From: an uncultured Clostridia bacterium
Lineage (GTDB): Bacteria; Bacillota; Clostridia; Christensenellales; UBA1242
Assembly: GCA_944384375.1 (NCBI GenBank)
Contig: CALWTE010000002.1
Coordinates: forward strand, 538-64,537
Direction: 5' to 3'
Length of the DNA: 64,000 nucleotides
The position numbers and the translations under genes were made by a program. The first letter of the stretch is position 1; each line of letters opens with the position of its first letter. Shown piece by piece: positions 11,695-44,156 of the stretch. The notes under the pieces are model-generated. The model had not been told where the DNA came from. It saw nothing but the letters and a program-made list of their open reading frames with translations, and ran no database searches.

Positions 11695-11858
11695 AATAAA
11701 CTCCTTGTATTTAGCCCCCGACTAGCCTATTGCCAGTGTATGAAATTTGAATAAAAAAAGTGAAACCACTATCTATACTATCTATATATTTATATAAGCA
11801 TCATAGTATCAACTTAATTAAAATTTATTACTCTTATTCTTTTTCTTTATAACTCATA

Positions 11859-12308: not shown

Positions 12309-12431
12309 TATTTTTATCTCCTTTTTATTTTTGTAGCATTTTATTATAGCACTTTTTACAAAAATTACCACTCTATAATTGGGTATTTTTTAAAAATAAA
12401 AGAGATAAAATAAAAATTAAGGAGAAATATT

Positions 12432-18619: not shown

Positions 18620-18646
18620 AAAAAAACGAGCAGATATATCTGCCCG
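18618..18646 (-). terminator. Intrinsic terminator ending the phage-like gene run
   Basis: Minus strand reads CGGGCAGAT-ATAT-ATCTGCTCG followed by nine T. It starts 11 nt after the stop at 18657. Confidence 0.7.
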
Positions 18647-18656
18647 TAAAAAACTT

Positions 18657-19544
18657 TTAATTTTGATTTAAAATTTTGTTTTTTATTTCAAGAAATTTCT
18701 CATTTGTTAGCGTTTTGACTTTACTATTAGTTTGCTTTTCACTACTTGTTACGTTATTCACCGCTAGCACTTGTGATTTTCTAGTATTTGTTGTGTCAGT
18801 CGTAATTGTTGAATTTTCTAAATTAAGAGAACTTTGAGTGTTCATATCAAGAGAATTTTGCGTTTCAGTTAAAGTTATGTTTTGGTTCATATTTTGGCTA
18901 TTATTCTGATTATACAAATTTGTATTGTTTTGATTATAACCGTCATTAGAATTTTGATTATTATTTTTGCTATACAAATTTGTATTATCTTCTTCATTTT
19001 GCGTATTAACAAAATTTTGAATATTTGCCAGTTCAGTAGCATTGTATGTTGGGTTTTCTAAACTTGACATTTCACTATAATTTGTATTTGTATGATTTTC
19101 GTGAAAATTATTGTCCACAATTTTTGTAGATTCCACAGCTTTTGCAGTAGAACTGTTATCTAAAGTTTTTGCAGATTCTGTTTTTAAACTATTTGTTTCA
19201 TTTGCATCAGTTTCCGCTGATTCTCCTTCCAAATTTTCTGTATTGACAACCTTTGTATTTGTCTTAGCAGCATCAGTTTCGTTTCCTTTATCCGCGTTGG
19301 TAGTTTCAGTTTCGTTTTCTGTTTCGGTATTTTTATTCTTTGCAAATAAGTTCTGAGCAGGATGCGAAATTATTCCCAGCACCACAAACACGCCAAGCGC
19401 ACTATTTACTATTGACATATAAGTTTCTTCGTCAACGGTAAGACTGAGTGGGCCACCTATTGCTTGAACCAACAATAAAACCGCGCTAGCAAGTGATACC
19501 CAAAAGCGATACGATTTTAATTTCTCTTTTAAATCTTCGCTCAT
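18657..19544 (-). CDS. Holin-like two-TM protein fused to a ~220-aa N/T/E-rich low-complexity tail
   Basis: N-terminal KSYRFWVSLASAVLLLVQAIGGPLSLTVDEETYMSIVNSALGVFVVLGIISHP resembles SPP1/XhlB-type class II holins. It is the last gene of the virion-type run. Confidence 0.45.
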   Translation of the reverse strand: MSEDLKEKLKSYRFWVSLASAVLLLVQAIGGPLSLTVDEETYMSIVNSALGVFVVLGIISHPAQNLFAKNKNTETENETETTNADKGNETDAAKTNTKVVNTENLEGESAETDANETNSLKTESAKTLDNSSTAKAVESTKIVDNNFHENHTNTNYSEMSSLENPTYNATELANIQNFVNTQNEEDNTNLYSKNNNQNSNDGYNQNNTNLYNQNNSQNMNQNITLTETQNSLDMNTQSSLNLENSTITTDTTNTRKSQVLAVNNVTSSEKQTNSKVKTLTNEKFLEIKNKILNQN

Positions 19545-19551
19545 TTTATCC

Positions 19552-20484
19552 CTACATCATTCTATTTACATAATCTAATACCGAACTATACCAGCCACCC
19601 AGCGAAGCCTTTATATCAGCATCATTTAAAATACGTAACGCTTCCGCCTTTGTTAACCCTTTTAACTGGTCAATAATGTAGACGCTTTTTTCCTGGCCTT
19701 TTTGAGCATCAAGGCGACTAGTAAAACTGTCAGCCCATTCTTGCCATTCCTGAATACGTTTGTTTCTAATTTCGGAAATTTCTGCATTGTACTTGTTTAA
19801 GTCAATAGTAAGTTGCTCATACTGTTTATTTAATTCTGCAATTTTATCTTCCAATTCTGATGCGTATGCAATATCAAACTTTTCCAAAGCGGAATTCATT
19901 TCGTTACGAGTCAATTCTCTTTGCAAATCAATCTCCGCTAGAGAATTATTTGCTCTTTGAATTTCGTACTCTAATTCGGTGTTAATTGAGTTTCGTAAAG
20001 AAGTTTGCATATTTTGTGCAATACTACTTCTCTCTATGCCTTGATTAATTTGGTTTGCTTGATTGTTTTCTAAACCTGTAGTCAATTCGTTTTCTAACTC
20101 TTGTTTAGTTTGTTCCAAATTTTGATTAATTGTATTTTTTCTTAAATCTAAAGATGCTAAGTCGTTTTGATACTCATTCACGATTTCTTGCTGATTAGTC
20201 ACACGATATGGCAATAAATCGTTTTCGGCTTCTTGTACAATTTGTTCTTGAGTAGGAATAGACGCATCTTTATAATCAGGCAAAGAATCTTCAAAATCTT
20301 CGTATACTGGATACTGTGATTCGTAACTTTTATCAATTTCGTTTAGCCTGTCTTTTACTGTGTCTAGAGTAGAACTAGTATTTATTTTAGGTTGTTGAGC
20401 AGCTACACGTGTAGAGTCACTAGTCGTAGTCACTTCTTCCATATCAATTTTCTCTCTATTGCTTTCTAAATTTTCCGTAGGCAT
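19552..20484 (-). CDS. Coiled-coil structural protein (310 aa), ejection/internal-protein-like by position
   Basis: Long Q/N/E/L heptad-like sequence. The probable start is the second ATG (20482-20484), preceded by GGAGGAGG. The ORF-track start at 20499 lies inside that RBS. Confidence 0.55.
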   Translation of the reverse strand: MPTENLESNREKIDMEEVTTTSDSTRVAAQQPKINTSSTLDTVKDRLNEIDKSYESQYPVYEDFEDSLPDYKDASIPTQEQIVQEAENDLLPYRVTNQQEIVNEYQNDLASLDLRKNTINQNLEQTKQELENELTTGLENNQANQINQGIERSSIAQNMQTSLRNSINTELEYEIQRANNSLAEIDLQRELTRNEMNSALEKFDIAYASELEDKIAELNKQYEQLTIDLNKYNAEISEIRNKRIQEWQEWADSFTSRLDAQKGQEKSVYIIDQLKGLTKAEALRILNDADIKASLGGWYSSVLDYVNRMM

Positions 20485-20537
20485 AATTACCTCCTCCATA
20501 TTTTAAATAAAAATTTTTTAAATACATTTGTATAATA

Positions 20538-20555
20538 AAAGAACTTTTGTTCTTT
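20538..20555 (-). terminator. Internal hairpin (AAAGAAC-AAAA-GTTCTTT plus T-rich tail) splitting the island into two transcription units
   Basis: Located between the 162-aa gene stop and the 310-aa gene start. Confidence 0.4.
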
Positions 20556-20605
20556 GTGTATATTTTATTTTTAGTCATTTTGTTACCATTTTTACTATAT
20601 TTTTA

Positions 20606-20646
20606 AGTACTATGCATGTGTATTATGCATATGCATAGTACTATAC
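20606..20646. repeat. Palindromic motif cluster: AGTACTATGCAT ... TATGCATATGCATAGTACTATAC
   Basis: Same half-site family as 10141-10156 and 59393-59439. It overlaps the stop codon of the 162-aa gene. Confidence 0.7.
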
Positions 20647-21129
20647 AAATACGCCTTTCGTAAGGGAAAAATCTTTGCTTAATAACATTTTTACGTTGCG
20701 TATTTCTCCATATAAACTAGTGTTTGTAGCCGTTAAAAATAATCCGCTATACGTAATTTCAGGAATAGGAACTTCTGCATATATAATCCCAGTCAACAAG
20801 TTATCACTTGCCGTTACATTAATACCACCACATGAAACATCATTATAAGTTAATGAAAAAGATACATCAACATTAGTTTTGAAATTAAATATTAAATAAA
20901 TTTTTGCTGTAGTAGAAGTAGATAATTGAGTAAGTTGCCCTAAAGGAATATTTGTTTCGGGTGAAAAATTTAAATAGTTTTCATACTCAATTAAGTTAAA
21001 ATTGTCACCTAAATATTGAGAAACATTAATATTATTAATTATTGAAAAATGGTTAGATAACTCATCTAGACGGTCTTCAAGTTCTGCTACCCTATTATAT
21101 AATTTACTATAATCATTATTATTTATCAT
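20641..21129 (-). CDS. Needle/fibre-like protein: N-terminal coiled coil plus C-terminal beta domain (162 aa)
   Basis: YSKLYNRVAELEDRLDELSNHF followed by a beta-rich domain. AGGTG lies 5 nt upstream of the ATG at 21127-21129. The ORF-track N-terminal extension overlaps the upstream gene. Confidence 0.5.
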   Translation of the reverse strand: MINNNDYSKLYNRVAELEDRLDELSNHFSIINNINVSQYLGDNFNLIEYENYLNFSPETNIPLGQLTQLSTSTTAKIYLIFNFKTNVDVSFSLTYNDVSCGGINVTASDNLLTGIIYAEVPIPEITYSGLFLTATNTSLYGEIRNVKMLLSKDFSLTKGVFV

Positions 21130-21136
21130 ATAACAC

Positions 21137-22630
21137 CTAACACAAAGCGACTTCCAATTGCGAATTTGAAATTTCACAACTTGCAACTTCACATTTAAAA
21201 GTAACACTAAACTTTTTACCTATTATATTTATAGGAACTCTACTTGGTGTAGCACTACCCTTGATTTTAAATTCAAAATCTTTTCCGTCTACATTAAATA
21301 TAACAGTAATATCCGTTTCTGTATTTAGCGAAAAATATTTGATTACCTTTTTATACGCAGGGTATCCCATATCAGTAAGGGGGGAAGTCCAAATTTTAGT
21401 AGTGATATTATCTTCAATTTTACCGTCTTGAGTTAATTCATATAACTTATTCCCTGCACTGCCATTTAATAGTATTAACAACTTACTAAATAGTGGCGCT
21501 TGAACTGCGTGCAAATAATTTATATCTACTCCCCTTAAAATTTGTATTTCACCCGTACTAATATCAAATTCTAGCAAAGTATTATTTGTATAGGTTGAAC
21601 TTTCACAACCAATTGTCCTACCATCATTATAGTTCAGTTTACATGCCAAATAATATTTTCCATCTAAAAAGGCGCCCACTGCCGACGAATTGTCTACATT
21701 CTCAAAATACTTATCTAAACCCAAATTTAACTTTTCCATACTTACGCCGTCAAAATAATACAAACCGTCTTTGCAAAGCATCAAAATCGTATTTCCGCAC
21801 AAAACAGCACTGTTGTAATACAATTTACCCGTTGTTAAATACATATTTTTTACAACAAAATCACTTTGCAATCCCCAAGCAGAAACGCGAGAAATACCAT
21901 ATTCTCTTATAACATATAGATAATTGTTTGATTCTATTACCTTCTTTAAAGTTCCACGTTCACCTGTTAATTCAATATAGCCACCTTCAAATTCGCTTAC
22001 ATTCCAATTTGTCGGGTCTAAATCATCGCTAAACCACAAAACGTTTTCATCACCAGCAACTGTTGCAAAAAGCCTACCCGCGTGCAAAGCAATTGACGTA
22101 ATGGACGGAACGTTTTCCGTATATGTCGTAACACTAGAATCTCCGTTAAATTTTGAAATTTTATTTAAACCACACAAAAAGAAGCAATCTCCCTCATCAA
22201 TTCTATAATTTATTCCGTTTGGAATATCGGTGAAACTAGCATTAATTTGTGTAAATGTAGCAATGGAACTTTCCAATCTAGCGTAGTAAATATTCCCGTC
22301 ATCACAATATGCGACAAGTAAAGGCACATATGAGTTTGTGTTATGACTAAATCTCGTGTAGACCCAACATCGTATAATTTGATTAACTCCTGTTGGTGTT
22401 TGCAAAACTTTAGTTCCATAACCGTAAGGAATTTCAAATTCTTTTATACCTAAACCTGTGCTAAGACTTCGTTTGTTAAAATTAAAGTTAAAAGTATTTA
22501 CTGCGTAATTTAATGGAAGTAGGTTTTCACTTAATTTTGTGTTAATTCCTTGAGAAAAATCACTCAAAGTCACACGCAACGATGATTTTGTATTGTCAGG
22601 TAAATTTTGACTATAAATCACTATACCCAA
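21137..22630 (-). CDS. Tail hub-like structural protein (497 aa), beta-propeller-like repeats
   Basis: Size and position after the adaptor-like gene resemble P22 gp10. Repeated aromatic/Gly beta-blade-like segments (LWFSDDLDPTNW, GGYIEL, LYVIREYGISRV). Confidence 0.45.
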   Translation of the reverse strand: MGIVIYSQNLPDNTKSSLRVTLSDFSQGINTKLSENLLPLNYAVNTFNFNFNKRSLSTGLGIKEFEIPYGYGTKVLQTPTGVNQIIRCWVYTRFSHNTNSYVPLLVAYCDDGNIYYARLESSIATFTQINASFTDIPNGINYRIDEGDCFFLCGLNKISKFNGDSSVTTYTENVPSITSIALHAGRLFATVAGDENVLWFSDDLDPTNWNVSEFEGGYIELTGERGTLKKVIESNNYLYVIREYGISRVSAWGLQSDFVVKNMYLTTGKLYYNSAVLCGNTILMLCKDGLYYFDGVSMEKLNLGLDKYFENVDNSSAVGAFLDGKYYLACKLNYNDGRTIGCESSTYTNNTLLEFDISTGEIQILRGVDINYLHAVQAPLFSKLLILLNGSAGNKLYELTQDGKIEDNITTKIWTSPLTDMGYPAYKKVIKYFSLNTETDITVIFNVDGKDFEFKIKGSATPSRVPINIIGKKFSVTFKCEVASCEISNSQLEVALC

Positions 22631-23190
22631 CTCCTTTTCTTCATTACAATGTTATTTTTGTTGCGTGCGGATATCAATGCTGCCTGTTCAAACATTGAAT
22701 TCCATGAATTTGCGTCTGTATACATACCTAAAAACATATAATATCTACTGACAACGCCTAGAGCCATTAATCGTACTGAAACTTTATTCTCCACAATTTC
22801 CAAATCCGTGACGCAATCCTCCACAAAATCAGGCATATATGTGTAAATAATGTTTAAAGTACCCTTTTTTGCTTCAAAATACGTTGGAAAAGAAGCATAA
22901 TCAACGTTTAAGTTATGTTCATCAGTTATTTTTACTATATCTATAATAGATTTTTCCAAACCAGAAAAACTATAAACGCACGTTTCAGAAGTGATTTTTT
23001 GCTCATATTTTAAAGGAAAATACATTAATGCTAAACTTTGTACAGTGTCATTAACACAAGTCAATAATAAATTTAGTTTTTCTACCTGTTGGTCTGTAGG
23101 CGTTATACTACCACCTAAAGTAGTAGTATTAGCCAAATCTGGCTCACCTATATAAACAACAGCTAGGTTTAAAACGTCTTTTGCAGTCAT
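22621..23190 (-). CDS. Head-to-tail adaptor-like protein (189 aa)
   Basis: Position immediately after the capsid genes. AAGGAG lies 6 nt upstream of the ATG at 23188-23190. Its 3' end overlaps the next gene by 10 nt. Confidence 0.4.
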   Translation of the reverse strand: MTAKDVLNLAVVYIGEPDLANTTTLGGSITPTDQQVEKLNLLLTCVNDTVQSLALMYFPLKYEQKITSETCVYSFSGLEKSIIDIVKITDEHNLNVDYASFPTYFEAKKGTLNIIYTYMPDFVEDCVTDLEIVENKVSVRLMALGVVSRYYMFLGMYTDANSWNSMFEQAALISARNKNNIVMKKRSWV

Positions 23191-23238
23191 TTTTACTCCT
23201 TTTAAGCCCATTTTGTTTGATAAGCATCTTTAAAATCG

Positions 23239-23583
23239 CTATCTTCTTCTCTTTTTTTTTGTATAATCAAACATTTCACGAACTTTCCAATTAGTTTCAT
23301 CTGTAATGGCTTTTTTAGAATTATTTTCTAACATTTCATTTTGTTTTTCTATTTCTGCTAAAATTTTACGTAAGTTCTCAATACGTGTTTTCCGTAATTT
23401 ATCTATAACCCTAGAATCAAGGCCAAAATCACAAGTTATGCAAAAAGTATTGCTTTTTTGGTGTTTATTGTGTATTTCGTACCTGTTTTTGTCGGTATTA
23501 TACACTGCATAGTACCCAGAGTCTATTTCTTTAATCCTAGTAGAAATATCAAAAACATCATTTATAATTTTTATTAAAGCCAT
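23239..23583 (-). CDS. Small basic coiled-coil protein (114 aa), head completion/decoration candidate
   Basis: Intact ORF with RBS between the capsid paralog and the adaptor-like gene. No motif recognised. Confidence 0.4.
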   Translation of the reverse strand: MALIKIINDVFDISTRIKEIDSGYYAVYNTDKNRYEIHNKHQKSNTFCITCDFGLDSRVIDKLRKTRIENLRKILAEIEKQNEMLENNSKKAITDETNWKVREMFDYTKKKRRR

Positions 23584-23597
23584 TTTTTCTCCTTTTA

Positions 23598-24788
23598 TTA
23601 ACCGCCTGATAGTATTAGACGTCCATTTTTGTTTGGTCTATCGCAAATTAAATCACAATATTTTACTAAAGTTGCTGTATGAGCGGCATAACCTTCTTTT
23701 TGGTGAATTACTTGTCCTTTGTCGTTACTCAACCATGTCCAATCGCATAATTGATGGAAGTTAAAAGTGCTAGAATCTAGCAAGTATCCTTCGCGTTTTT
23801 CAACAAATCTATTTGCAACAACAGGAATTCCATTCACTGTAATAGCGCGTACTCCACCTTCCATAACTGTAATGTCTGAGTTAAAAGCATAGTTTTTAAG
23901 AGCGCGTTGGTAATTTCTACGCCAAATATAGTCACATACAATAATGTCAATATTTGCGTTATAATTTAATTTTATATTATCAATTGCTTGCAAAACTGTA
24001 GCAAAAGTAGTTTCTGTTGATAAAAGTGTTTCCGTTGTCGCTGTTAAGAATGAATTGTTTGTCCTACTTAATCCATACAGTGTAGCCACTTTTGTTGGGT
24101 GCAAAATTCCGTGAACACCTACTATTTCACTACTTGCCTGTGTAGCCAGTTTAAACTTGATTTCACCTGTAACTGTATTTTCTTCGTCATATTCACAACC
24201 AACAGGCAAAGTTATTGTTTCGTTTTTATAGTCAACATCTAGAACTTCTACATTTGTTAGATATTCAATAGCTTCACCAAACATATCATAACCAGTGATA
24301 TGCATACCTGGCATAAATCTATTTACAGGGTCAACAGGATAAACTCTCTCACCGTCTACTTCATCGGTGGAAGCACCAATTAGTCCATCACCGTCTCCGT
24401 ATAGAATACGCCTTAAGTTAAACTTACTTGATTCTATCAAATTTTCCATTTCTGCATTCAAAAGATTTAAAAATGCGCCGGTTTCGTTTTGGCTAGCCCT
24501 AATTGCCTTGTCTGAAATTTCAATTTGACCATATAAATTTTTTAAAGTTGTAGTCAAAGCAGCATAATTGCTTTCTTGAGATTTTGGTAAGCTACCGACT
24601 TCAGAACCTGCTCCGATTCCACCATTGATGCCGATAGTTATAAGTTTCTTAATTTCATTACCCGTAATATCTTGAGATGTCTTTTTTATTTTTGAGTAAA
24701 AAGGGTCAGTGTCGTTTTCTAATTCGTTTTTAATAACATCAAGATAAACATTTTTTAAGGCACTATCTGCCGTACTTAAAGATATCAT
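23598..24788 (-). CDS. Major capsid protein-like, paralog 2 (396 aa)
   Basis: Follows the scaffold-like gene. About 55-60% identical to 24802-25998 over the first ~135 aa by manual alignment. Shared blocks are NGGIGxGSE, TTTLKNLxGxIEIxDKAIRAS and ATLVKYxDLICxRPN. Confidence 0.6.
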   Translation of the reverse strand: MISLSTADSALKNVYLDVIKNELENDTDPFYSKIKKTSQDITGNEIKKLITIGINGGIGAGSEVGSLPKSQESNYAALTTTLKNLYGQIEISDKAIRASQNETGAFLNLLNAEMENLIESSKFNLRRILYGDGDGLIGASTDEVDGERVYPVDPVNRFMPGMHITGYDMFGEAIEYLTNVEVLDVDYKNETITLPVGCEYDEENTVTGEIKFKLATQASSEIVGVHGILHPTKVATLYGLSRTNNSFLTATTETLLSTETTFATVLQAIDNIKLNYNANIDIIVCDYIWRRNYQRALKNYAFNSDITVMEGGVRAITVNGIPVVANRFVEKREGYLLDSSTFNFHQLCDWTWLSNDKGQVIHQKEGYAAHTATLVKYCDLICDRPNKNGRLILSGG

Positions 24789-24801
24789 ATTTTTACCCCC
24801 T

Positions 24802-25998
24802 TTATGAACTCAAACTTACTGTAATCAAACCTTGAGCATTTGGTCTGTTACAAATTAAGTCCGCATATTTTACTAAAGTTGCCGAAAAAGTTGGAAAACC
24901 TTCCTTTTGGCGTAGAATTGAGCCGTCATTATTAGTCAGCCATTCCCAGTCACACAATTGGTACAAATTGAACATTTCGGTGTTTAACATCAAAAGTGTA
25001 TTTTTTTGACAGAATTTATTCCTAATTACAGGTACCCCGCTAAAAGCAACACTTGTTATTCCACCCTCAAAATTAGTACTATCTAAATTTTTTGAATAAT
25101 TAGCAATAAAAGTTATAATTTTATAGTAAACTTCACTAGGACAAGCGATAATATTTGGTTGATACCCTGAACGTATTTCAATATCATCAAGCATAGTCTG
25201 GATAAAAACTTCGTCAAAAGTTTCAGTATCATTACCACTAGTTTTTTGGGTATATAGATATGGCATAAGTGATGCATAATCAGCACGATTTATTCCATAA
25301 AGTGTAGTACTGCTACCAAAAATAGCACCCAACCCTGTCAATTCACAATCTTTGCTACCTTGAATGTAAAATTTGTATTTTGTAGCATTAGTAGATGTAA
25401 AATTCGTTGATTTTGCTGAAACGTAAACTGTGTTACTAGCCCTGTTAATTTGAGTAATTGTTACCCCTTTCATCGCCGGGTCTAAAACGCCATCATTATA
25501 AAAATCTAGCACCATCCCTTCCATAAGGCTCGCAGTATTATCAACCACAAAAGAATTGTCCGTTGAGGAAATACTGGAGATTGTGCCTAGAGAACCAGTA
25601 CCATCACCATAAAACATACGCGCTAAATTAAATTTACTAGATTCTAGCAAACTATCCATTTCTGCAGTTAGTAAATTTACAAAAGCACCTTCATCATTTT
25701 CTGATGCTCTAATTGCTTTGTCTGTAATTTCTATTGTCCCAAAAAGATTTTTCAATGTTGTAGTAAAATTTACATATTTTGTTTCTGCACTTTCAGGCAA
25801 TGCGCCATCTTCGCTACCAGTACCAATACCACCATTTAGACCATAAGGCACTAATTTTACAATATTCTTGCCATAAATATCGGAAGAAGTTTGTTTAATA
25901 GTGTTGAATATAGGGTCAATTTGAGTGTTTAATTGAGCAGATATAGCGTCTAAATATACAGTTTTTAGCGCATTTTGTGCCGTAGTTAAAGTAATCAT
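24802..25998 (-). CDS. Major capsid protein-like, paralog 1 (398 aa)
   Basis: Capsid-size ORF directly after the scaffold-like gene. Paralogous to 23598-24788. AGGAG RBS. Confidence 0.6.
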   Translation of the reverse strand: MITLTTAQNALKTVYLDAISAQLNTQIDPIFNTIKQTSSDIYGKNIVKLVPYGLNGGIGTGSEDGALPESAETKYVNFTTTLKNLFGTIEITDKAIRASENDEGAFVNLLTAEMDSLLESSKFNLARMFYGDGTGSLGTISSISSTDNSFVVDNTASLMEGMVLDFYNDGVLDPAMKGVTITQINRASNTVYVSAKSTNFTSTNATKYKFYIQGSKDCELTGLGAIFGSSTTLYGINRADYASLMPYLYTQKTSGNDTETFDEVFIQTMLDDIEIRSGYQPNIIACPSEVYYKIITFIANYSKNLDSTNFEGGITSVAFSGVPVIRNKFCQKNTLLMLNTEMFNLYQLCDWEWLTNNDGSILRQKEGFPTFSATLVKYADLICNRPNAQGLITVSLSS

Positions 25999-26011
25999 AA
26001 ATAATTTTCTC

Positions 26012-26827
26012 CTATTTCATTAATAATTTTTTTGCCAATTCTTTGGCTTCTTTCATAGAAAGTGCTTGTTTTTTATGTTCTGCGATAATTTCCGCACCTG
26101 AATTTAAAGTTTTAGAAATCACAGCGGGTGCAGATTTATTTGATTTTAATGAATTTAAGTATTCTTGAATAACTTTTTGCTTAATTTTTTCATTTTTCAT
26201 TACTATTTCTTCTAAATCTGCATTATTTATTGCGTTTTCATCAACTTTATTTTCTAGAACTTTTATCCAAGCCTGTTGCAAGGGGTCTACTGAATCACGT
26301 ACAACCTTATCTTGCACTAAAACCTTACCTATTTCCTTTACATAATTCTTCGCTTTTGAATTATTATTGAAAAAGTTTTCTACATTTTTATTCCAACTAG
26401 CACTTTCCCAAATTTTTGCGGGAGTATTGGATACTTTGTCCGCAGCACTGTCAGGGGTTTTTACCTTGTCTGACTGATTTTCTATGACTAAAGACTCGTC
26501 CGTTTTAGAAATCTCGCCTGTAAACTCATTTAAATTATCGGTTTTTTCTTTATTTACATCATTTTTTAATAAATTTTCGCTATTTCTTGCTTGTTTTCCG
26601 TCATTTTCGGTTAAAATTTCGTTATTTTGAGCCTTTTGCGTACTATTTGCTTGTTCTTTTTTGATTTTTGATAGTTCCATAGCATTTTTAGTAAAACTTT
26701 TACGTAAGCAGTCATAAGCATCTTTTAGGGTTTTTACTGATTTAAATGTTCCTAAGTCCGTATTGTCTGGTTGCAATTCTTCTAGATTGAATTCTGGTAA
26801 ATTGATTTTAATTTCATTTTCTTCCAT
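26012..26827 (-). CDS. Scaffolding-like protein (271 aa, acidic/Lys-rich, helical)
   Basis: Position between portal and capsid genes. Low-complexity charged helical sequence. No protease motif. Confidence 0.5.
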   Translation of the reverse strand: MEENEIKINLPEFNLEELQPDNTDLGTFKSVKTLKDAYDCLRKSFTKNAMELSKIKKEQANSTQKAQNNEILTENDGKQARNSENLLKNDVNKEKTDNLNEFTGEISKTDESLVIENQSDKVKTPDSAADKVSNTPAKIWESASWNKNVENFFNNNSKAKNYVKEIGKVLVQDKVVRDSVDPLQQAWIKVLENKVDENAINNADLEEIVMKNEKIKQKVIQEYLNSLKSNKSAPAVISKTLNSGAEIIAEHKKQALSMKEAKELAKKLLMK

Positions 26828-26883
26828 AAAATTCTCCTAAAAATATGATTTTTTATATGTTTTTTAGTGTTTTTTGCTGTATT

Positions 26884-28806
26884 TTACTGGCTATTTGCTA
26901 CTGATGTTCCGTTTTCTGCTAATTGTGTCAAGCGTTTGTAGCGCTTGTGTTGTCTAATATGCTCTAGCATTTTTTCTTTTAATTTATTTTTATTTTTGTT
27001 TGCTTTTTCAAAATCAGCACTCAGCATAAATGCTGTATGACTACTAATATGCAAATCGTGGTCGTGTATTTCTAGAACTTCGGGGTCTTTTCCTTCTAAA
27101 AACTCTTGATTTTCACGTTTTGCTTTTTCTACTTGCAAACTATTGTTATCAAGGGCATCTTCCCAAATTCCAAAGCCCAGCATTTCCATTACTTTTAAAC
27201 GCATAGCGTTAGATAATTTACCATTCTCGTCATGTAACAAGCCTGCTTGCAATAATTCAAACACCATATTACGTTTTTGTGCAACAGTTTCACCGATTTC
27301 ACTTTCGGTTTCAAAACTTACATCGTCACTTGTTATTTCACTACTATCCCAGTAAAACAACTTGCTTGCGCCATTTTCGCCTACAATTTTGTTAATTCTT
27401 TGTGTCGTAATGAATTGTTTATATAGTCTCAAAATTTGTCTACCTATTTCTTTAAGAGCAAATCTTATATACTCGCCTGATGCCGAAATGCGCATATCTT
27501 CTTGTTCAACTAATACTTGCAATGCTACCCCACTCATATTTGCTAGCGCGCTAGTATTTGTTCCAAACAAATCGTTTACACCGCTGATATTTATAAATTC
27601 ACTAATTAATTTATCTTCTTCGTCTCTAAAATCTACAGGCAAACTTGAAGTGGCCAACATTTGCGGAGCACGTGCGCCTTGTCTATAAATCAAAACTTTT
27701 CCAGGACTCAAGCCCTCGTCTTCTAGGTTTTCAATATCAACAGAGCCGTCTTCTACACTCATAACCCCCATACAAAGTCTATTCATAAATTCGTGTTTTC
27801 TATTTTTTACTGCATTATACGCTCTTTGGACTGGAATACAACGTTCTACAATTGAAGTTCCCCAAAAAAGTGATGGCTGACTAATACTAATTTGCCGAAC
27901 AAAAGGAAAGCCCCTTTCATTATTTTGTAAATTTTTATAAGGCAAATCGCCATTATATAGCAATTTATCACCAGCAACAATTATCAACCTACCATTTGGG
28001 AATTCGTCGTTTGGCATTTCGTAACGTTCAATCACTAATGCGTGATTGTGTTTTACTGTTTTTGCAACTTTTGCCGAATGACTGGCGTAACCTAGCCCGC
28101 CCGCAACCTGTGAGTTTTGCAAGTTATATGTATCAATATCTTCGCCAGGGATATCAACGCCCCAGTGCTTTTTAATGGTTTTTACATCATAAGCGCGTGC
28201 ATGAATTATACTTTGGCAACTTTCAATTGATTCAGCAGTGTTACTATCAGGATAAATTTCAAAAGGCGAACAAACCAAAATATCCACATCGCCTTCATAG
28301 ATTTTTTCACCTAAAGTGGTTAGTCCTACGACAGACCCCGCCGAGTCATTCCAAACTATTTTGTAGAACACAGTACCACAGATTTCACTCCAGCGTGTCG
28401 CTAACGAAACAAGCTTGCTCAACTCTAGTTTTGCAGTAATTGACTGTAAAATATCCTTACAAATATGAGCGTTGCTTACGTCATCTTCGTCATTACTTGC
28501 TGGTAAAACGGTCATTTTAGGGCGAACTGTTGCAAGTTTTGATAGCCTAGTTTCAACTAATGGTGCGATGTGATTATAAACTTCACGTTCTTGCCAAAAA
28601 TATTGCTTATCAAAATCGTCTAATGTGTTGTTAATTCCTATACCGCAGTACTGATTACCCATTACAAAATTCATATTTAATTGCCATTGAGCATCAAAGG
28701 GACGACGTTCTTCACGACGTCTTTCAAAATCTTTTAAAACTTCGCCGACTAATTCTTTTTCTTGCAAAGTTTTACTTTTTTGTGTTTTTTTGATATCTTT
28801 TTGCAT
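26884..28806 (-). CDS. Portal protein-like (640 aa)
   Basis: Size and position immediately downstream of the terminase module. Assignment is by synteny only. Confidence 0.6.
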   Translation of the reverse strand: MQKDIKKTQKSKTLQEKELVGEVLKDFERRREERRPFDAQWQLNMNFVMGNQYCGIGINNTLDDFDKQYFWQEREVYNHIAPLVETRLSKLATVRPKMTVLPASNDEDDVSNAHICKDILQSITAKLELSKLVSLATRWSEICGTVFYKIVWNDSAGSVVGLTTLGEKIYEGDVDILVCSPFEIYPDSNTAESIESCQSIIHARAYDVKTIKKHWGVDIPGEDIDTYNLQNSQVAGGLGYASHSAKVAKTVKHNHALVIERYEMPNDEFPNGRLIIVAGDKLLYNGDLPYKNLQNNERGFPFVRQISISQPSLFWGTSIVERCIPVQRAYNAVKNRKHEFMNRLCMGVMSVEDGSVDIENLEDEGLSPGKVLIYRQGARAPQMLATSSLPVDFRDEEDKLISEFINISGVNDLFGTNTSALANMSGVALQVLVEQEDMRISASGEYIRFALKEIGRQILRLYKQFITTQRINKIVGENGASKLFYWDSSEITSDDVSFETESEIGETVAQKRNMVFELLQAGLLHDENGKLSNAMRLKVMEMLGFGIWEDALDNNSLQVEKAKRENQEFLEGKDPEVLEIHDHDLHISSHTAFMLSADFEKANKNKNKLKEKMLEHIRQHKRYKRLTQLAENGTSVANSQ

Positions 28807-28814
28807 TTTTTACC

Positions 28815-29018
28815 TCATTTTTCATTATTTTCTAAATAAAATTTACTTTTTACAGATTTTGGAATTATGATTTTACCTAATTGCATGTATAAATCAGTCA
28901 TACATTCTTTACATAAATTCACACTGTATTTGTTAAATTTAATGTTGCAAAAAATAATATTTTCACAACCTAATTTACCAGCACACCGTACCCGCTTGTT
29001 TACAATATTTACTTTCAT
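28815..29018 (-). CDS. Small Cys-rich zinc-ribbon-like protein (67 aa)
   Basis: CAGKLGC...C...CKEC cysteine pairs. Tightly packed between the 97-aa gene and the portal. Confidence 0.45.
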   Translation of the reverse strand: MKVNIVNKRVRCAGKLGCENIIFCNIKFNKYSVNLCKECMTDLYMQLGKIIIPKSVKSKFYLENNEK

Positions 29019-29019
29019 T

Positions 29020-29313
29020 CTAAGTACCCCCTTTTGAAATACTTGCTAGTACTTTTTCTCGTAATTTTTGTAATTCTTCATCACTTAGACTTTTAATTTT
29101 TTCCAAATTCATTTCATTGCTTTTTTCCAGCAAGGCTTTTGCCGCATTTATATCGGGTGGAATGTGCTTTTTTGTGATTTTTTTCTTAACAAGTTTTAAT
29201 TCATTCTCATCATTTACATATTCTTCAACAATTTCGTCAACAGAATAGCCCATTGCTTTTTTTAATAATGTTTTGGTTAATTTGTCATTTTCATCCGTTT
29301 TAATAATAACCAC
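29020..29313 (-). CDS. Small basic protein (97 aa), possible small-terminase/DNA-recognition subunit
   Basis: Overlaps the TerL 3' end by 14 nt. KKKITKKHIPPDINAAKALLEK resembles small-terminase-like proteins. Weak. Confidence 0.35.
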   Translation of the reverse strand: MVIIKTDENDKLTKTLLKKAMGYSVDEIVEEYVNDENELKLVKKKITKKHIPPDINAAKALLEKSNEMNLEKIKSLSDEELQKLREKVLASISKGGT

Positions 29314-30754
29314 CCCTTTTTAAATTGTTGTGCCGAACACGTGACAGCAATTTTTCTTTGTGAATTTGTATCATTGTTGGTTTTTCCTTTTCCAAAGTGG
29401 CATTTTCTGGGCGGGACATAATATAATAGCGCAAATCGTCCATCGCGTGGTCGTCTTTTTTAATGGGCGCATCTTCATTTCCCCACCAGTAGCCTTTAAT
29501 TTCGCGAATCATATTCACACAATTAGAAAAAATAAACAATTTTGCTTCATTTTTTGCATTTTTTAAGTAACTTTTTACTCTGGATATGCCTGAAAACATA
29601 TCTTTATTTACATTTGTGTTTACATTTATGCCATAATCATAAAACAACTCGCTGACACTTTTTGGACTAGAGAGCGTGCGTTGATTGGCTGCCGAATCTA
29701 TCAAACAGTCATAAAAACCATTAAAATTTTGCTTCCAACCTAACTTTTTGCAAATTTCTTTAATTTTGTTTGCATGATACTCTATTGTCTGTTCGGCTTC
29801 ATAATGTTCGGCAATGACATACACATTCCCATCATAATCAACTGCATACCAATGGCAACTTAAAGGGTTGTGTAGACCAGGGTCAATGCTTATTTTATCG
29901 TACCAGTCAGTAGGAACTTTGAATGGCTCTATAACGTGAGTATTGATATCAAATTCACTATAAACTAGCCCACCACGTGCCGAGAATTTACCAAACCTAC
30001 GTGATTCCAACTCATCAGGACTCAAAACACTGCTTAGACTATCAATTTCCGCTTTTTGCAAAAAAGGATTATCCGCCCACTCCATTTCTATATACCAGAC
30101 TTCAGCATCGTTACTTTCATTTAAGTAAATTTTATCATAAACCCAAGTCAGCCCTTTTAGCGGAGTCATTGTTCCAAAAATGTCGCCCACTTTATCCAAA
30201 ACTCGCATACGACATTCTAGATAGATATCAAAGGGTGGTTCTTCGTCAAACCAAACCCAATCTAGACTAGTACCCTGAAATTTTTCTCTACCCTGGTCAC
30301 AAGTTTTAAAGCCGATTTTACTGACGCCACCGAAAATGTTTTTGATTAATATGTAATCTATAACTCCACTTTTTGGTGAATCTTTTCTACCATTCAGCAT
30401 AACTATATCTACAATCCAATCGGGATTTAAGTAATATAAAATTTTATCTTGTGCCACATCACGCTGAACCTGTTGACTAAGACTAACCACCCACCCTTCC
30501 GTATTTGGTTTATTTTCTCTAAATGGATGAATGCCTCGTGCTAGCCAAATTGCTTCAACCGCTCCGCATTGCGTCTTGCCACTTCTATTGCCACCAAATA
30601 CCCATCTATTTCTTTTTTTACACTTATGAAACAACATTTGTTTTTTATGTATTTTTTTACCTTTGTTATACTCTTGTAGTTTGTTATTTTCTTTCCGTCT
30701 AGCAATTTCTTTATCAATTAATTCTAAGTTATATAGGGCTTCATTTAATTTCAT
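29300..30754 (-). CDS. terL: Terminase large subunit (ATPase plus nuclease)
   Basis: Walker A FGGNRSGKT and Walker B LDWVWFDEEP. The C-terminal half has a D-rich RNaseH-like nuclease pattern (IDPG..., DDHAMDDLRY). 484 aa. Confidence 0.85.
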   Translation of the reverse strand: MKLNEALYNLELIDKEIARRKENNKLQEYNKGKKIHKKQMLFHKCKKRNRWVFGGNRSGKTQCGAVEAIWLARGIHPFRENKPNTEGWVVSLSQQVQRDVAQDKILYYLNPDWIVDIVMLNGRKDSPKSGVIDYILIKNIFGGVSKIGFKTCDQGREKFQGTSLDWVWFDEEPPFDIYLECRMRVLDKVGDIFGTMTPLKGLTWVYDKIYLNESNDAEVWYIEMEWADNPFLQKAEIDSLSSVLSPDELESRRFGKFSARGGLVYSEFDINTHVIEPFKVPTDWYDKISIDPGLHNPLSCHWYAVDYDGNVYVIAEHYEAEQTIEYHANKIKEICKKLGWKQNFNGFYDCLIDSAANQRTLSSPKSVSELFYDYGINVNTNVNKDMFSGISRVKSYLKNAKNEAKLFIFSNCVNMIREIKGYWWGNEDAPIKKDDHAMDDLRYYIMSRPENATLEKEKPTMIQIHKEKLLSRVRHNNLKRGGYY

Positions 30755-30877
30755 TATCTACCTTTTAGTATAAAAAATATAATTTTCGCGTTCTTTTTGT
30801 TTAAAATTTGTAAAAAAAACAATAATTGCATTAAGAAAAACAATCATTGTTTGATAAAATAGCATAGGAGTTTAGTT

Positions 30878-31687
30878 ATGCGTAAATATTTATACATTTT
30901 TATTGCATTAATATTCATTTTTCAAATAAATTATTTTTGTAATCTATCGCCTACTTTTGCGCAAGGAGAAGTGTATTACCGAATCACTGGGCAAGAAGTT
31001 ACGCTATATCGCACACCCGTCTTAGACGAAGATTATAGCAATATTTATTTCACTTTGCCAACTAGTTATTTTGTAAAATTTATAGCGGAAGAAAATGAGA
31101 ATTTTTTAAAAGTTCAATATATTGATTTTGTGGGGTACGTGCTAAAAACTGATGTTACACAAGTTTATTCTACACCTGTAACACCATACTTTACTCAAAC
31201 TTTTACTGTCTTTGGAACAGCGAATCCAGTAGTTTGGAGTCAGCCTAGCACTCAATCAACGTATTTAGGAAATATTCCTTTTAATGCAGAAAGTGTAACT
31301 TGCTTTGGTGCTATTAATGGAGAAATCGCTCTAGAAAATGGTGGTAGCACGTGGTATTTTTGTCGCTACACTAGTTTTGAACAAGGCATTTTAACGGGTT
31401 ATGTTTATGCAAATTTAACTACTAATTTAAGTGAGTTTGTGGAAAATACCGAAATCGTCGAGACCGAACCATCGCAAGAAACTTCGGGTGAAATCTTTGC
31501 ACCTGAACTACAAAATGGCACAAGTATTATTTTAATTGTTGGCCTGTGCATCTTTGCTCTCATACTTTTAGTTCTAGTATTCAAGCCTGAAAGACGTCGC
31601 AAAAAAGCAGAAGCAAAACGTCAAATTACGACACTTAATAGACTAGCAATACCTGATAAAAACAAGCACGATGAATTAGATTTTTAA
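30878..31687 (+). CDS. Secreted, C-terminally anchored protein with two SH3b-like domains
   Basis: Signal peptide. VTLYRTPVLDEDYS...FLKVQYIDFVGYVLKTDV fits SH3_3. C-terminal TM helix IILIVGLCIFALILLVLVF plus RRRKK. Confidence 0.6.
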   Translation: MRKYLYIFIALIFIFQINYFCNLSPTFAQGEVYYRITGQEVTLYRTPVLDEDYSNIYFTLPTSYFVKFIAEENENFLKVQYIDFVGYVLKTDVTQVYSTPVTPYFTQTFTVFGTANPVVWSQPSTQSTYLGNIPFNAESVTCFGAINGEIALENGGSTWYFCRYTSFEQGILTGYVYANLTTNLSEFVENTEIVETEPSQETSGEIFAPELQNGTSIILIVGLCIFALILLVLVFKPERRRKKAEAKRQITTLNRLAIPDKNKHDELDF

Positions 31688-31694
31688 AAATTTG

Positions 31695-31717
31695 TGCATA
31701 GTACTACGTATAGTACT
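31695..31717. repeat. Palindromic motif variant TGCATAGTACTACGTATAGTACT
   Basis: Same half-site family. A further half-site AGTACTATGCA at 31835-31845 lies inside the 3' end of the regulator gene. Confidence 0.6.
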
Positions 31718-31828
31718 TTTTTAGTAAAAATTAGATAAAAAGCATTAAAATATTAGTTTTTTATTAATTTTTGCTCAAAAAACGTTAAATTTTAGCAATT
31801 TTTTTGGCTTTTCCATTTTTTATCGTAC

Positions 31829-32407
31829 TCAAACAGTACTATGCACATTTGATTTCACTTGCCTACCGTACCCTAAACTTAACACCTTGTCAATGCCGTG
31901 TAGAGTGGGTACTTTTAGACGCACAAGCTCTGGGTGACTTTTCTTAAATCTATCAACTATTGAATTATATACACCAATAATCCAGCCTTCATTCTCTAGC
32001 AATCTCTCTAAGTCTTCACACTTGTACCCCAAATCGTAGATCCTATCCATACAGTTACGCAAATATTTATTCATACGGCGCGCTAATGTCCTATTATTCA
32101 TTTTATACTCATCTGCCAACTCGTCAATAGCGACTTTGTCTATGTAAAATTTTATTAAAATTCTTGCTTCTTGCCTATCGGTATTTTTAAGTGATTCTTC
32201 TACCATCCATTTTACAATAAGTAATCTTTTTTTGCGCTGTATCAAATCAATAATTGCTTCCATTTTTGCTAAAGTGGTTGACTCGCCCGAATCAACAGTA
32301 TAGCTATGCACACTTTTTTCCATAACTAGTCTATCAATACTGCTAATTAATCGGCTCAAATATTTATAAGATTCAAAAATCGTTTTTGCCCATATTAATT
32401 TTTTCAT
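31829..32407 (-). CDS. Sigma-70 region-4-like / ArpU-RinA-Xpf-type late transcription activator candidate (192 aa)
   Basis: Central segment RQEARILIKFYIDKVAIDELADEYKMNNRTLARRMNKYLRNCMDRI has the region-4 HTH pattern. GGAGG lies 7 nt upstream of the ATG at 32405-32407. Confidence 0.45.
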   Translation of the reverse strand: MKKLIWAKTIFESYKYLSRLISSIDRLVMEKSVHSYTVDSGESTTLAKMEAIIDLIQRKKRLLIVKWMVEESLKNTDRQEARILIKFYIDKVAIDELADEYKMNNRTLARRMNKYLRNCMDRIYDLGYKCEDLERLLENEGWIIGVYNSIVDRFKKSHPELVRLKVPTLHGIDKVLSLGYGRQVKSNVHSTV

Positions 32408-32505
32408 AAAAATCCTCCAAAATTTTTTCAAAAAATCAAAGCATCTCTGCGTTTTGCTACAAATATTATTACAAGATGTTATGAATTGTCAATATTTTAG
32501 GACAC

Positions 32506-32555
32506 TTTTTTGCAAATTTTTGTAAAATTTTTTAATTTTTGCAAATCTGTAATAT
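32506..32555. repeat. Two direct copies of TTTTTGCAAAT(N)TGTAA(N)AT in the divergent intergenic region
   Basis: Copies at 32506-32528 and 32536-32555, between the regulator gene and the 601-aa gene. Confidence 0.5.
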
Positions 32556-32777
32556 ATTTGAGTTTTCAAACAAACGTTCTAAGTATATTTATAAATTATT
32601 GACACCTAGTATGCAAATTATTTAATAAGTTTAAAAAATTTTAGTTTTTTGTTTTATCATTTAAATTAAATATGATATAATATTATTATTAATAGTTTAA
32701 TAGTAAATTGTTATAGAGATTTATAAAGTTGCTAATTTCAATATAAAATATCAAAAAGGTTTCTTTAGGAGTTACTT

Positions 32778-34583
32778 ATGAAAAAATTTTGGTTAAATAG
32801 TCTTATCTTGTGCATTTGCTTGCTCGGGTGTCTAAGTGCGGATACCCTATTTGCTAGTGGCACTCAGTTTAATGCCGTCAACACACCTATAAATATTAGC
32901 GTAAGTGAAACTACTCCGCAAAGCATTGACGATTTATATTATAATAATAATTCACTTTTTGTTGTGGATAGCACGGGCAAAAATATTTTTAAAATAGATT
33001 TAGACACTGACGAACAAACCATAGTTTTTAATGATAATGACATTGTGCCTTTTGATATTGTTATTTCTAATGAACAATTGATAATTTCGTCTAACAATAT
33101 GTTCGTTTATATTGTAGATTTAAATAATGACAATGCTAGCGAAAGTTTTTCTCAAGAAATTCGCTATTATTATAATAATGGTGAAACAAGTGGTTTAACT
33201 TCTACAAACCGAAAAGTAGTAGCGAGTGCTACTGGCGAAGTATATTTTATATGGGATAGTGTAATTGCTAGACTAGATTTAGAAAATGACAGACTTGAAC
33301 ATTTTGCAACACTAAATTATGATGAACAAAATTTAACCTTTACTGACGGAGAATTTTTCGTAACCGAAGACAATTCAACCATTTACTTTACTATTGAAAA
33401 TTCCATCTATTCTCTTGACACGAATACGAAAAACATAACATTACTAGACAATTCTACCCTAGCAAATCCTAATCAAATTGATTTCTTGACTTTTGACAAT
33501 TTAGGTAATACCTATATTTTAGACGGCTCAACTTTAATAAAAGCGAACACTACTGGCACTGAAACTGTGACTTTAAGTGATATAAATAATATTGAAATCA
33601 ATTTAGAAACGGGACAAGTCTATACAGCGAACACGAATCAGCTCTACCTTACAACAATTATAGATGATGCGGGCAATCCTTTTATATTAGGTTACAAAAA
33701 TGAACCTGCTCCTGTTGATTTAAATGATATTGAAATTTCAAATGAACTTGTAAAAGTCATTGAAGCAAACACAGAAACAAACTTATACACATATAAAAGT
33801 TTGCAATTTACTACAACAACCTACGAAATCGGTAAAAAATTAATTGTTTTAGATGAAAGCGATTCTAATTTCTACTATGTTTATGACAGTAATTTTGCCG
33901 ATAGTGAATTTGGCTATATGCTCGGTTATGTGCTAAAAGACGATTTTAATATTTGCCCAAACACCTTGCCTAGTGATTTTGTATCAAGTCAACAAGGCAA
34001 AATTATAGTGCAAGAAAGTAAGGTTTTTGTGCTACCTACCAGTCTAAATATTGATGCTGATACTAAGGCTAAGTTTGCAACAAAACTAGACTACAACACT
34101 ATTGTAACGATAATTTCCGCTCCTATAATGCCTACCGATGCCGAAAATGTAGCTTTCTATGCAATTAGGCTAACTATTGATGACCAGGAAGTTATTGGTT
34201 ACATTGACAGTAGAACTGTTATAAACATTCAAGACGAAACTTTGCCAAACACCCCTGTAGCAAATGCTACCACAAGAGCAGAAACGATTGTATATCTTGA
34301 AGAAACTTGCGAAACAGAGATAGAAACAATTCCGCAAGGCATAAATGTACGTATAATTAGTAGTGCAGACGGTGTTAGTCATATTCAATATTTTATAGAT
34401 CAAGACGGGCAAACGATTATTAAAGAAGGTTATGTTAGGACAAGTTTTCTTGATGATGGCACACTTACACTAACTCAGATTTTAGGTATAGTTTTAATGA
34501 TTTTATCTATTATTATTGCTATTATTATTGCCATTGTAATTAATAAAAGCAAAAAGAAAAAGGAAGAAAGCAACTCTTTATAG
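32778..34583 (+). CDS. Secreted, C-terminally anchored protein: N-terminal beta-propeller-like region plus three SH3b-like modules (601 aa)
   Basis: Signal peptide. Repeated blade-like segments. SH3b-like strings ending GYVLKDDF, GYIDSRTV and GYVRTSFL. C-terminal TM helix plus KKKKEE. Confidence 0.6.
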   Translation: MKKFWLNSLILCICLLGCLSADTLFASGTQFNAVNTPINISVSETTPQSIDDLYYNNNSLFVVDSTGKNIFKIDLDTDEQTIVFNDNDIVPFDIVISNEQLIISSNNMFVYIVDLNNDNASESFSQEIRYYYNNGETSGLTSTNRKVVASATGEVYFIWDSVIARLDLENDRLEHFATLNYDEQNLTFTDGEFFVTEDNSTIYFTIENSIYSLDTNTKNITLLDNSTLANPNQIDFLTFDNLGNTYILDGSTLIKANTTGTETVTLSDINNIEINLETGQVYTANTNQLYLTTIIDDAGNPFILGYKNEPAPVDLNDIEISNELVKVIEANTETNLYTYKSLQFTTTTYEIGKKLIVLDESDSNFYYVYDSNFADSEFGYMLGYVLKDDFNICPNTLPSDFVSSQQGKIIVQESKVFVLPTSLNIDADTKAKFATKLDYNTIVTIISAPIMPTDAENVAFYAIRLTIDDQEVIGYIDSRTVINIQDETLPNTPVANATTRAETIVYLEETCETEIETIPQGINVRIISSADGVSHIQYFIDQDGQTIIKEGYVRTSFLDDGTLTLTQILGIVLMILSIIIAIIIAIVINKSKKKKEESNSL

Positions 34584-44134: not shown

Positions 44135-44156
44135 AATATTTTTACTTTCCTTTTAT

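Follow-up and report, generated by a model that had tools for sequence, protein, structure and literature searches.

A tandem pair of capsid genes

The stretch of DNA analysed here, 64,000 nucleotides of contig CALWTE010000002.1 (positions 538 to 64,537) from an uncultured Clostridia bacterium and hereafter called the window, carries two adjacent genes for major capsid proteins (MCPs) within a minus-strand cluster of head, packaging and lysis genes. MCP1 (24802-25998, minus strand, 398 amino acids, aa) is the more conservative of the two and the proposed hexamer-forming shell subunit, while MCP2 (23598-24788, minus strand, 396 aa) is the derived copy and a proposed specialised subunit, most likely of the pentons. 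The two genes are 13 nt apart. An earlier note on this DNA, made from the letters alone, had described them as adjacent paralogous open reading frames of capsid size, and this is confirmed at these coordinates: a full-length BLASTP alignment gives 41% identity and 57% positives (E 8e-89), and MCP1 and MCP2 are true full-length paralogs. The note's estimate of 55-60% identity over the first 135 or so residues is close to our measurement of 61% over residues 2-135, identity then falling to 22% over residues 136-330, the far more divergent middle that it had described, and recovering to 49% over residues 331-395. All four of the conserved blocks that it quoted (NGGIGxGSE, TTTLKNLxGxIEIxDKAIRAS, ESSKFNL and ATLVKYxDLICxRPN) are found in both proteins. 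The variability of the middle segment extends beyond this pair to the whole capsid family, including its single-copy members. Synonymous divergence (dS) between the paralogs is saturated in every region (1.4-3.7), so the conserved ends reflect constraint and neither recent gene conversion nor an assembly artefact. Recent gene conversion as the source of the conserved N-terminus was ruled out in particular, as the paralog dS there is 1.38.

The major-capsid-like identity proposed in the earlier note is borne out by profile searches. NCBIfam NF033394 (capsid_maj_Podo), which has a curated cut-off of 80 bits, matches MCP1 with 219.6 bits and MCP2 with 197.3 bits, and PHROG 14242, annotated "major head protein", matches them with E values of 8e-49 and 1e-28, respectively. 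Pfam has no family matching either protein at E up to 0.01, and several of their homologs carry precomputed matches to Pfam SU10_MCP (PF17236). Searched as a profile against PDB sequences, the MCP alignment found nothing significant; it was the fold search alone that gave matches.

For that search, AlphaFold2 monomer models were built from alignments of about 100 sequences. The model of MCP1 has a predicted local distance difference test score (pLDDT) of 88.4 and a predicted template modelling score (pTM) of 0.84, that of MCP2 a pLDDT of 85.8 and a pTM of 0.84, and the secondary-structure elements follow in identical order in both. With Foldseek, both models match the capsids of HK97, SU10, Pa223 and Mic1 at probability 1.0 and E about 1e-10. 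The best PDB match of MCP2 is the SU10 capsid (7z48, E 5.6e-11), and its model superposes on the predicted sole MCP of Arthrobacter phage Jasmine with a template modelling (TM) score of 0.79. Reading the capsid elements from the order of the secondary structure rather than from model coordinates, we assign an N-terminal arm (N-arm) to residues 1-44, an E-loop hairpin to 45-81 with NGGIGxGSE at its tip, the spine helix to 103-129, a G-loop (YGDGxG) to 130-135 and a beta-rich variable segment to 136-212, followed by elements of the A and P domains. MCP2 retains the whole of this architecture together with the invariant residues of the family. The earlier note had proposed a comparison of structure predictions and raised the possibility that one copy lacks the HK97 core; each model has the full HK97 fold. 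By profile match both proteins are of the major-capsid type (capsid_maj_Podo family) and by model they have the HK97 fold; they are predicted to assemble shells.

Duplication history, selection and expression

Each MCP has more than 4,000 homologs in the databases, and 194 loci were fetched in total for comparison. Among the 130 that have sufficient flanking sequence, in a sample skewed towards MCP1-like sequences, tandem MCP genes were found in 20 loci (16 of them distinct) and a lone MCP gene in the other 110. A neighbour-joining tree built from 141 sequences groups every first copy in one clade (bootstrap 81) and every second copy in another (79, with a core at 91). It joins these clades as sisters (67) within a background of lineages of this element that have a single copy, and no single-copy locus in that tree falls inside either of them. 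A first tree, made from the database hits with fewer single-copy sequences, had placed MCP2 in a basal position when rooted at the midpoint, which we set aside as a long-branch effect. The simplest history to be read from these sequences would be a single old tandem duplication among single-copy relatives, with both copies retained in every sampled descendant.

In three loci (L034, at 11196-12374, L121 and L192) the second MCP is a long branch, and its best BLAST matches are single-copy proteins, although the tree puts it in the second-copy clade. An independent second duplication in L034 and L121 was considered and dropped with moderate confidence, as the better-sampled tree places the copy inside the second-copy clade; for the three loci together, an origin by independent duplication or by recombinational replacement keeps some residual probability.

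The two copies have diverged unequally. MCP1 is always nearer than MCP2 to the single-copy relatives, and across five relatives the orthologs of MCP1 are 84, 67, 60, 55 and 50% identical, those of MCP2 76, 57, 49, 43 and 45%. Nine of the 12 fixed differences between the paralogs are derived in MCP2. By the same secondary-structure reading, several of the derived sites lie at the end of the N-arm and the base of the E-loop, and others in the spine helix (position 118), the G-loop, the C-terminal strand and the variable middle. These comparisons indicate that MCP2 evolves faster and is the more derived copy. Root-to-tip distances are longer in both paralog clades (0.65 and 0.71) than in the single-copy relatives (0.49), as would be expected if each copy had been freed from part of the ancestral job.

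Both copies are under purifying selection. Measured against the closely related locus L031, where substitutions are unsaturated, the ratio of nonsynonymous to synonymous divergence (dN/dS) is 0.050 for MCP1 and 0.038 for MCP2, and full-length MCP2-type proteins make up 60 distinct clusters at 90% identity. The earlier note had reasoned that inactivating changes in one copy among relatives would speak against a two-protein shell. Both copies are intact in all 16 distinct two-copy loci sampled, the sole exception being an in-frame TAT-to-TAG change in the second MCP of the metagenomic contig L037 (8380-8620; the same contig as L122), which lies 30 codons before the normal stop. Because the frame downstream of the TAG is still conserved, the change is very recent or a sequencing error; read-through could also account for it.

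The signals for translation are conserved as well. In 11 loci both MCP genes begin with ATG and are preceded by a conserved Shine-Dalgarno sequence; the two genes are separated by 1-21 nt. Pairing with the anti-Shine-Dalgarno sequence is stronger for MCP2 (-10 to -14 kcal/mol) than for MCP1 (-7 to -9 kcal/mol) in all 11. A weaker ribosome-binding site on MCP2, to be expected of a rare vertex protein, was looked for and the opposite was observed. Because its Shine-Dalgarno sequence pairs more strongly than that of MCP1, MCP2 bears no mark, as far as the translation signals indicate, of a low-abundance product. Complete, selected and operon-linked, both copies appear from the genomic evidence to be needed by the element.

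The surrounding cluster and its chromosomal setting

The capsid pair lies within an element of about 12-16 kb, which spans 18626-34583 in the window. On the minus strand, the order of genes is regulator, TerL, p97, p67, portal, the gene in scaffold position, MCP1, MCP2, p114, p196, p497, p188, a DUF7934 protein and holin. Directly upstream of MCP1, between it and the portal gene, is the scaffold-like gene (26012-26827, minus strand, 271 aa), which matches no Pfam or PHROG family; its position is kept in all related loci, and a scaffold role is likely on that account. The portal (26884-28806, minus strand, 640 aa) matches Pfam P22_portal (5e-17) and SU10_portal (4.9e-09) as well as phrog_156. 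Two small open reading frames, p97 and p67, lie upstream of the portal gene at 28815-29313 (minus strand) and are conserved in relatives. The first has weak similarity to a terminase small subunit (phrog_309, 8e-06). The second (28815-29018, 67 aa), between the TerS-like p97 and the portal, is rich in cysteine, with CxxC-type pairs that give its sequence the look of a zinc ribbon, and its conservation is confined to the closer relatives. TerL, the terminase large subunit (29300-30754, minus strand, 484 aa; Pfam Terminase_6N 4.9e-13, phrog_2), is 60-90% identical across all related loci.

At the upstream end, a gene of about 200 aa (31829-32431, minus strand) encodes a sigma-70 region-4-like regulator, a putative activator of the cluster, which matches the transcriptional regulators of phrog_36 (1.8e-08) and has homologs with weak Sigma70_r4_2 matches; a near-consensus promoter-like site lies upstream of it (32492-32465). 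Two genes are oriented opposite to the operon. The first (30878-31687, plus strand, 269 aa), which adjoins terL in all close relatives, encodes a protein with a predicted signal peptide and C-terminal membrane anchor, whose homologs have faint SH3_3 matches only. The second (32778-34583, plus strand, 601 aa) is an accessory gene on the upstream border of the element, in the same position in L024-L029, and its product matches no family in Pfam, PHROG or NCBIfam scans. Both accompany the element in every close relative, including those with other flanks.

Downstream of the capsid genes are three conserved virion genes, p114, p196 and p497 (21137-23583, minus strand), kept in this order in single- and double-MCP loci alike. 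p497 matches a virion structural protein (phrog_3287, 4.4e-08). When p497 and p196 were compared with PDB sequences by phmmer, no informative match came back; all three are putative connector or short-tail parts. In the window p114 (23239-23583) ends in DYTKKKRRR, while in the 98.5% identical relative L031 and others it has 124-126 aa and ends in KKREEDSDFKDAYQTKWA, a difference that points to an indel, in an A/G-rich run close to the 3' end, which may be a genuine frameshift or an error of sequencing. The operon ends (18626-21207, minus strand) with the variable p188, the DUF7934 protein p315 (1.2e-16), the holin p295 (Phage_holin_1 4.9e-06; phrog_297) and, after the holin, a terminator-like hairpin of 9 pairs followed by T8 at 18647-18626. 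No comparably strong terminator-like site was found within the cluster, and none between MCP1 and MCP2. The holin gene (18657-19544) encodes 295 aa, of which the holin profiles cover about 110 N-terminal residues (Pfam 6-63; PHROG 4-113); the remainder is a long low-complexity tail rich in N, Q, T and E, and orthologs have 93-192 aa.

The remainder of the window is ordinary bacterial chromosome, with FtsA/FtsZ, a DD-carboxypeptidase, YtfJ, AddAB and large surface proteins. At 39851-48851 lie, in tandem, the genes for two secreted proteins of great length (1427 and 1564 aa), with MBG and CarboxypepD_reg repeats, that resemble ordinary surface proteins. No integrase, recombinase, replication or lysogeny genes turned up in the window when the cluster and its flanks were scanned with Pfam, PHROG and NCBIfam, and the gene tables of related loci are likewise without integrase, replication and lysogeny genes. 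The same cluster, in the same order, is present in metagenome-assembled genomes of Clostridia, on chromosomal contigs as long as 1 Mb, some of them labelled Christensenellales or Borkfalkiaceae. The window and L024/L025 have a right flank in common (YtfJ, PBP5, pseudouridine synthase and acyltransferase); between them the host genes are 82-96% identical and the module genes 57-92%, with similar dS in both. In L026-L030, L033 and L035 the cluster stands after Polysacc_deac-SSB and/or before RNase J-methyltransferase-U32 peptidase, and among three such hosts RNase J is 52-54% identical and TerL 63-67%. Against L031, dN/dS is 0.04-0.08 for the scaffold-like protein, MCP1, MCP2, p196 and p497.

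The syntenic site, co-divergence with the host, purifying selection and absence of integrase and replication genes argue for an element resembling a gene transfer agent (GTA) rather than a prophage or satellite. From its genes alone, then, the element is read as domesticated, vertically inherited and GTA-like, with head, packaging and lysis genes and with predicted particles and DNA packaging. A capsid-forming phage-inducible chromosomal island was considered and rejected: an integrase, an AlpA-type regulator and a primase-replicase were found in neither the 64-kb window nor related loci, and the presence of a holin and the synteny of the site across deep host divergence speak against such a satellite as well. 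The cluster would appear to represent a widespread GTA-like element, so far undescribed, in Clostridia of the Christensenellales type. This context, a vertically inherited chromosomal element and not a phage genome, was overlooked in the earlier note.

We considered which known systems the element resembles. The closest solved fold is that of the Escherichia phage SU10 capsid, and the element has an SU10/P22-type portal; the closest predicted fold is that of Jasmine. Both phages share with the element the gene order TerL, two small genes, portal, scaffold-position gene and MCP, but both are autonomous, with a single MCP that switches conformation between hexamers and pentamers, and sequence identity is 10-27%. 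Jasmine has a genome of 46.7 kb and one MCP with 22-27% identity to those of the window, so the autonomous relatives are distant.

In its general character the element resembles FpGTA of Faecalibacterium, a podovirus-like GTA-like element that is near-ubiquitous in the genus and forms particles of about 40 nm containing 8.4-8.9 kb of host DNA (PMC12946183). Like the window element, it is a small chromosomal operon of gut Clostridia with TerS-like, TerL, portal, scaffold, MCP and a few structural proteins and no replication genes. It differs in having one MCP, named by NCBI as of the N4-gp56 family, whereas those of the window match capsid_maj_Podo, a distinction that on the side of FpGTA is drawn from the NCBI protein name. 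Its structural and lysis genes are also in two clusters, whereas those of the window element, known from genes alone, are in one. The same study, based on long reads, reported GTA-like packaging of 4-7 kb fragments in Christensenellaceae with no gene cluster assigned to it (PMC12946183), and the window element would be a candidate for this activity.

Proposed composition of the shell

The shell of the predicted particle is probably built from two proteins. Of the arrangements considered, we lean towards one in which both co-assemble in a single shell, with MCP1 in the hexamers and MCP2 in the pentons, while granting it somewhat less than an even chance. The capsid gene would have been duplicated once in tandem, long ago, within a podovirus-derived chromosomal head-and-packaging cluster. 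MCP1 and MCP2 would be produced from the same long operon and would co-assemble on the scaffold, around the portal, into one two-component HK97-fold shell. The conservative MCP1 would form the hexamers and the derived MCP2 would occupy a place of its own in the lattice, most probably the eleven pentameric vertices, as do gp24 beside gp23 in bacteriophage T4 and MCPp beside MCPh in phage Jabs. With one vertex given to the portal, pentons would contribute 55 of 175 subunits (about a third) to a shell of triangulation number (T) 3, or 55 of 235 (a quarter) at T=4, for an expected MCP2:MCP1 ratio of 1:2.2 to 1:3.3. A vertex role may therefore be compatible with strong expression of MCP2, as pentons are a large fraction of a small shell.

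Several considerations favour this division of labour. One conservative and one derived copy fit a generalist with a specialist beside it. By the secondary-structure reading, the end of the N-arm and the base of the E-loop hold several of the sites derived in MCP2, and in SU10, which has a single MCP, pentamer subunits differ from hexamer subunits in the N-arm and E-loop, among other elements (PMC9509320). The T4 and Jabs pairs, the two examples of split capsid genes on record, use the same division of labour and the same gene order. In T4, whose genome is about 169 kb, gp23 and gp24 are HK97-fold paralogs that arose by duplication; their genes adjoin each other downstream of those for the portal and scaffold, and that for the main shell protein precedes the other. 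There gp23 forms the hexamers and gp24 the pentameric vertices (PMC13185644, a review that gives the genome as about 145 kbp). The likeness consists in adjacent HK97-fold paralogs in a head module, one a generalist and one a derived copy. It is analogy and not homology, since the window pair belongs to an unrelated MCP family and comes from an independent duplication; neither MCP matches any of the T4 capsid families in Pfam, PHROGs or NCBIfam. T4 also differs in scale, as gp24 contributes a small share of its prolate T=13 head, whereas the window element has about 12-16 kb and a second copy with the stronger ribosome-binding site, and its putative vertex location is an inference. In the Mycobacterium abscessus siphophage Jabs, MCPh (ORF72) forms the hexons and MCPp (ORF73) the 11 pentons of a T=9 capsid of an autonomous phage, with no cement proteins and with 594 and 257 residues, respectively (bioRxiv 10.64898/2026.07.24.740622). 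Here too the two capsid genes are adjacent, the hexon gene first and the penton gene next, but the window copies are equal in length, 41% identical and part of a non-autonomous chromosomal element. Outside the viruses, Family 2B encapsulins are HK97-fold shells co-assembled from two paralogous shell proteins. They have no portal, terminase or scaffold and hold enzyme cargo rather than DNA, whereas the window cluster has a full DNA-packaging set.

A number of points weigh against the assignment of MCP2 to the pentons. Its strong ribosome-binding site is unlike that of a minor vertex protein. The paralog clades are separated by one strict clade-specific residue (D358/K357) and two 1-residue indels, with no obvious penton signature among them. 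The placement of the divergent sites in capsid domains follows the order of secondary structure, not coordinates, and the capsomer type of each protein is something we infer from retention, operon linkage and precedent. The sister relation of the two paralog clades is moderately supported, at 67%, and was at 14% in an earlier, less well sampled tree. Finally, production of particles by the element is itself a prediction made from its genes.

The same strong and conserved translation signals on both copies, with those of MCP2 the stronger, would suit a shell in which the two proteins are mixed at near-equal stoichiometry, whether in hetero-hexamers (alternating, for example), in distinct classes of hexamer or as cap and body tiles of a prolate head, forming a pseudo-T lattice. 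We regard this as a doubtful reading, though it is the main rival and deserves to be kept in view. The segments that make subunit contacts (N-arm, E-loop, spine helix and G-loop) are kept in both proteins, as such a lattice would require, but a pair made up of one conservative and one derived copy is better explained as generalist and specialist than as equal partners, and we know of no precedent for hetero-hexamers in a tailed phage or GTA. There is also a hint of co-evolving partners: across nine loci (the window, L024, L026-L029, L033, L036 and L118), paralog identity within and between genomes is 0.58 and 0.55, 0.29 and 0.27, and 0.52 and 0.50 by region. This excess is small and could reflect either co-evolution of interacting partners or rare gene conversion. 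The MCP of SU10, a relative, does build a prolate head with six hexamer variants (PMC9509320).

Each protein has a complete stand-alone MCP fold, and those relatives of the element that have a single copy make do with it. Each paralog might accordingly build a shell of its own, giving two particle types by size or condition, or one might be a redundant spare that buffers the element; we consider this unlikely. GTA-like packaged DNA from gut Christensenellaceae does show more than one size peak, 4.1 and 7.1 kb in the case of HGM11616, with no cluster linked to it (PMC12946183 supplement). Genes 13 nt apart in one operon, with one scaffold, portal and terminase, are however unlikely to be regulated independently, and pure redundancy fails to explain why deeply diverged descendants have all kept both copies, at dN/dS of about 0.04-0.05.

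It is less likely still that MCP2 has ceased to be a shell tile and serves in decoration or as cement, in assembly or size determination, or as a decoy for host capsid sensors. The divergence of its surface-exposed middle (22% identity) and its faster evolution relative to MCP1 are what one might expect of such a change, but the middle is variable in all family members, single-copy ones included, and MCP2 keeps the whole MCP architecture and the invariant residues of the family. Decoration proteins known so far do not, to our knowledge, use the HK97 fold. The earlier note had offered a decoration or cement role for one copy beside a hetero-oligomeric shell; as MCP2 keeps every element of a shell subunit, we judge that role the less likely of the two. 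The idea that MCP2 is a decaying or neutral, functionless duplicate, for which the TAG codon in L037 might be cited, is close to refuted by the intact second copy in all other loci, its dN/dS of 0.038, its conserved Shine-Dalgarno sequence and ATG, and its 60 protein clusters.

Returning to the two-component shell, a fuller scenario can be offered tentatively, as possible but with the balance against it. An ancestor of this Clostridia lineage would have domesticated a podovirus head module, whose capsid gene then duplicated once, and the element would have come to depend on a shell that needs two HK97-fold proteins, each a major component in stoichiometric amounts. MCP2 pentons would supply a third of the subunits at T=3, or else the capsomers would be mixed in a pseudo-T lattice. 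This would hard-wire a small head for a few kb of host DNA. The element would then be the first GTA with two MCPs and the missing cluster behind GTA-like packaging in gut Christensenellales.

Separate genes for different capsid positions have been described as rare and tied to large genomes such as that of T4 (PMC13185644), and a two-protein shell would be rare for so small an element. The pair in the window is best described as a split capsid gene of independent origin, now fixed across one clade of a GTA-like element that is domesticated and very small, and for this pair a hetero-oligomeric shell is well motivated. Split capsid genes in a cluster of about 12-16 kb, with an independent origin and clade-wide retention, would mean that genome economy is not the limit on such an arrangement. 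The occurrence of single- and double-MCP forms at the same chromosomal site offers a natural before and after for the passage from a one-protein, quasi-equivalent shell to a two-protein one. The element itself may be a widespread candidate GTA of gut and digester Clostridia, and it provides a concrete candidate for the packaging genes of the Christensenellaceae.

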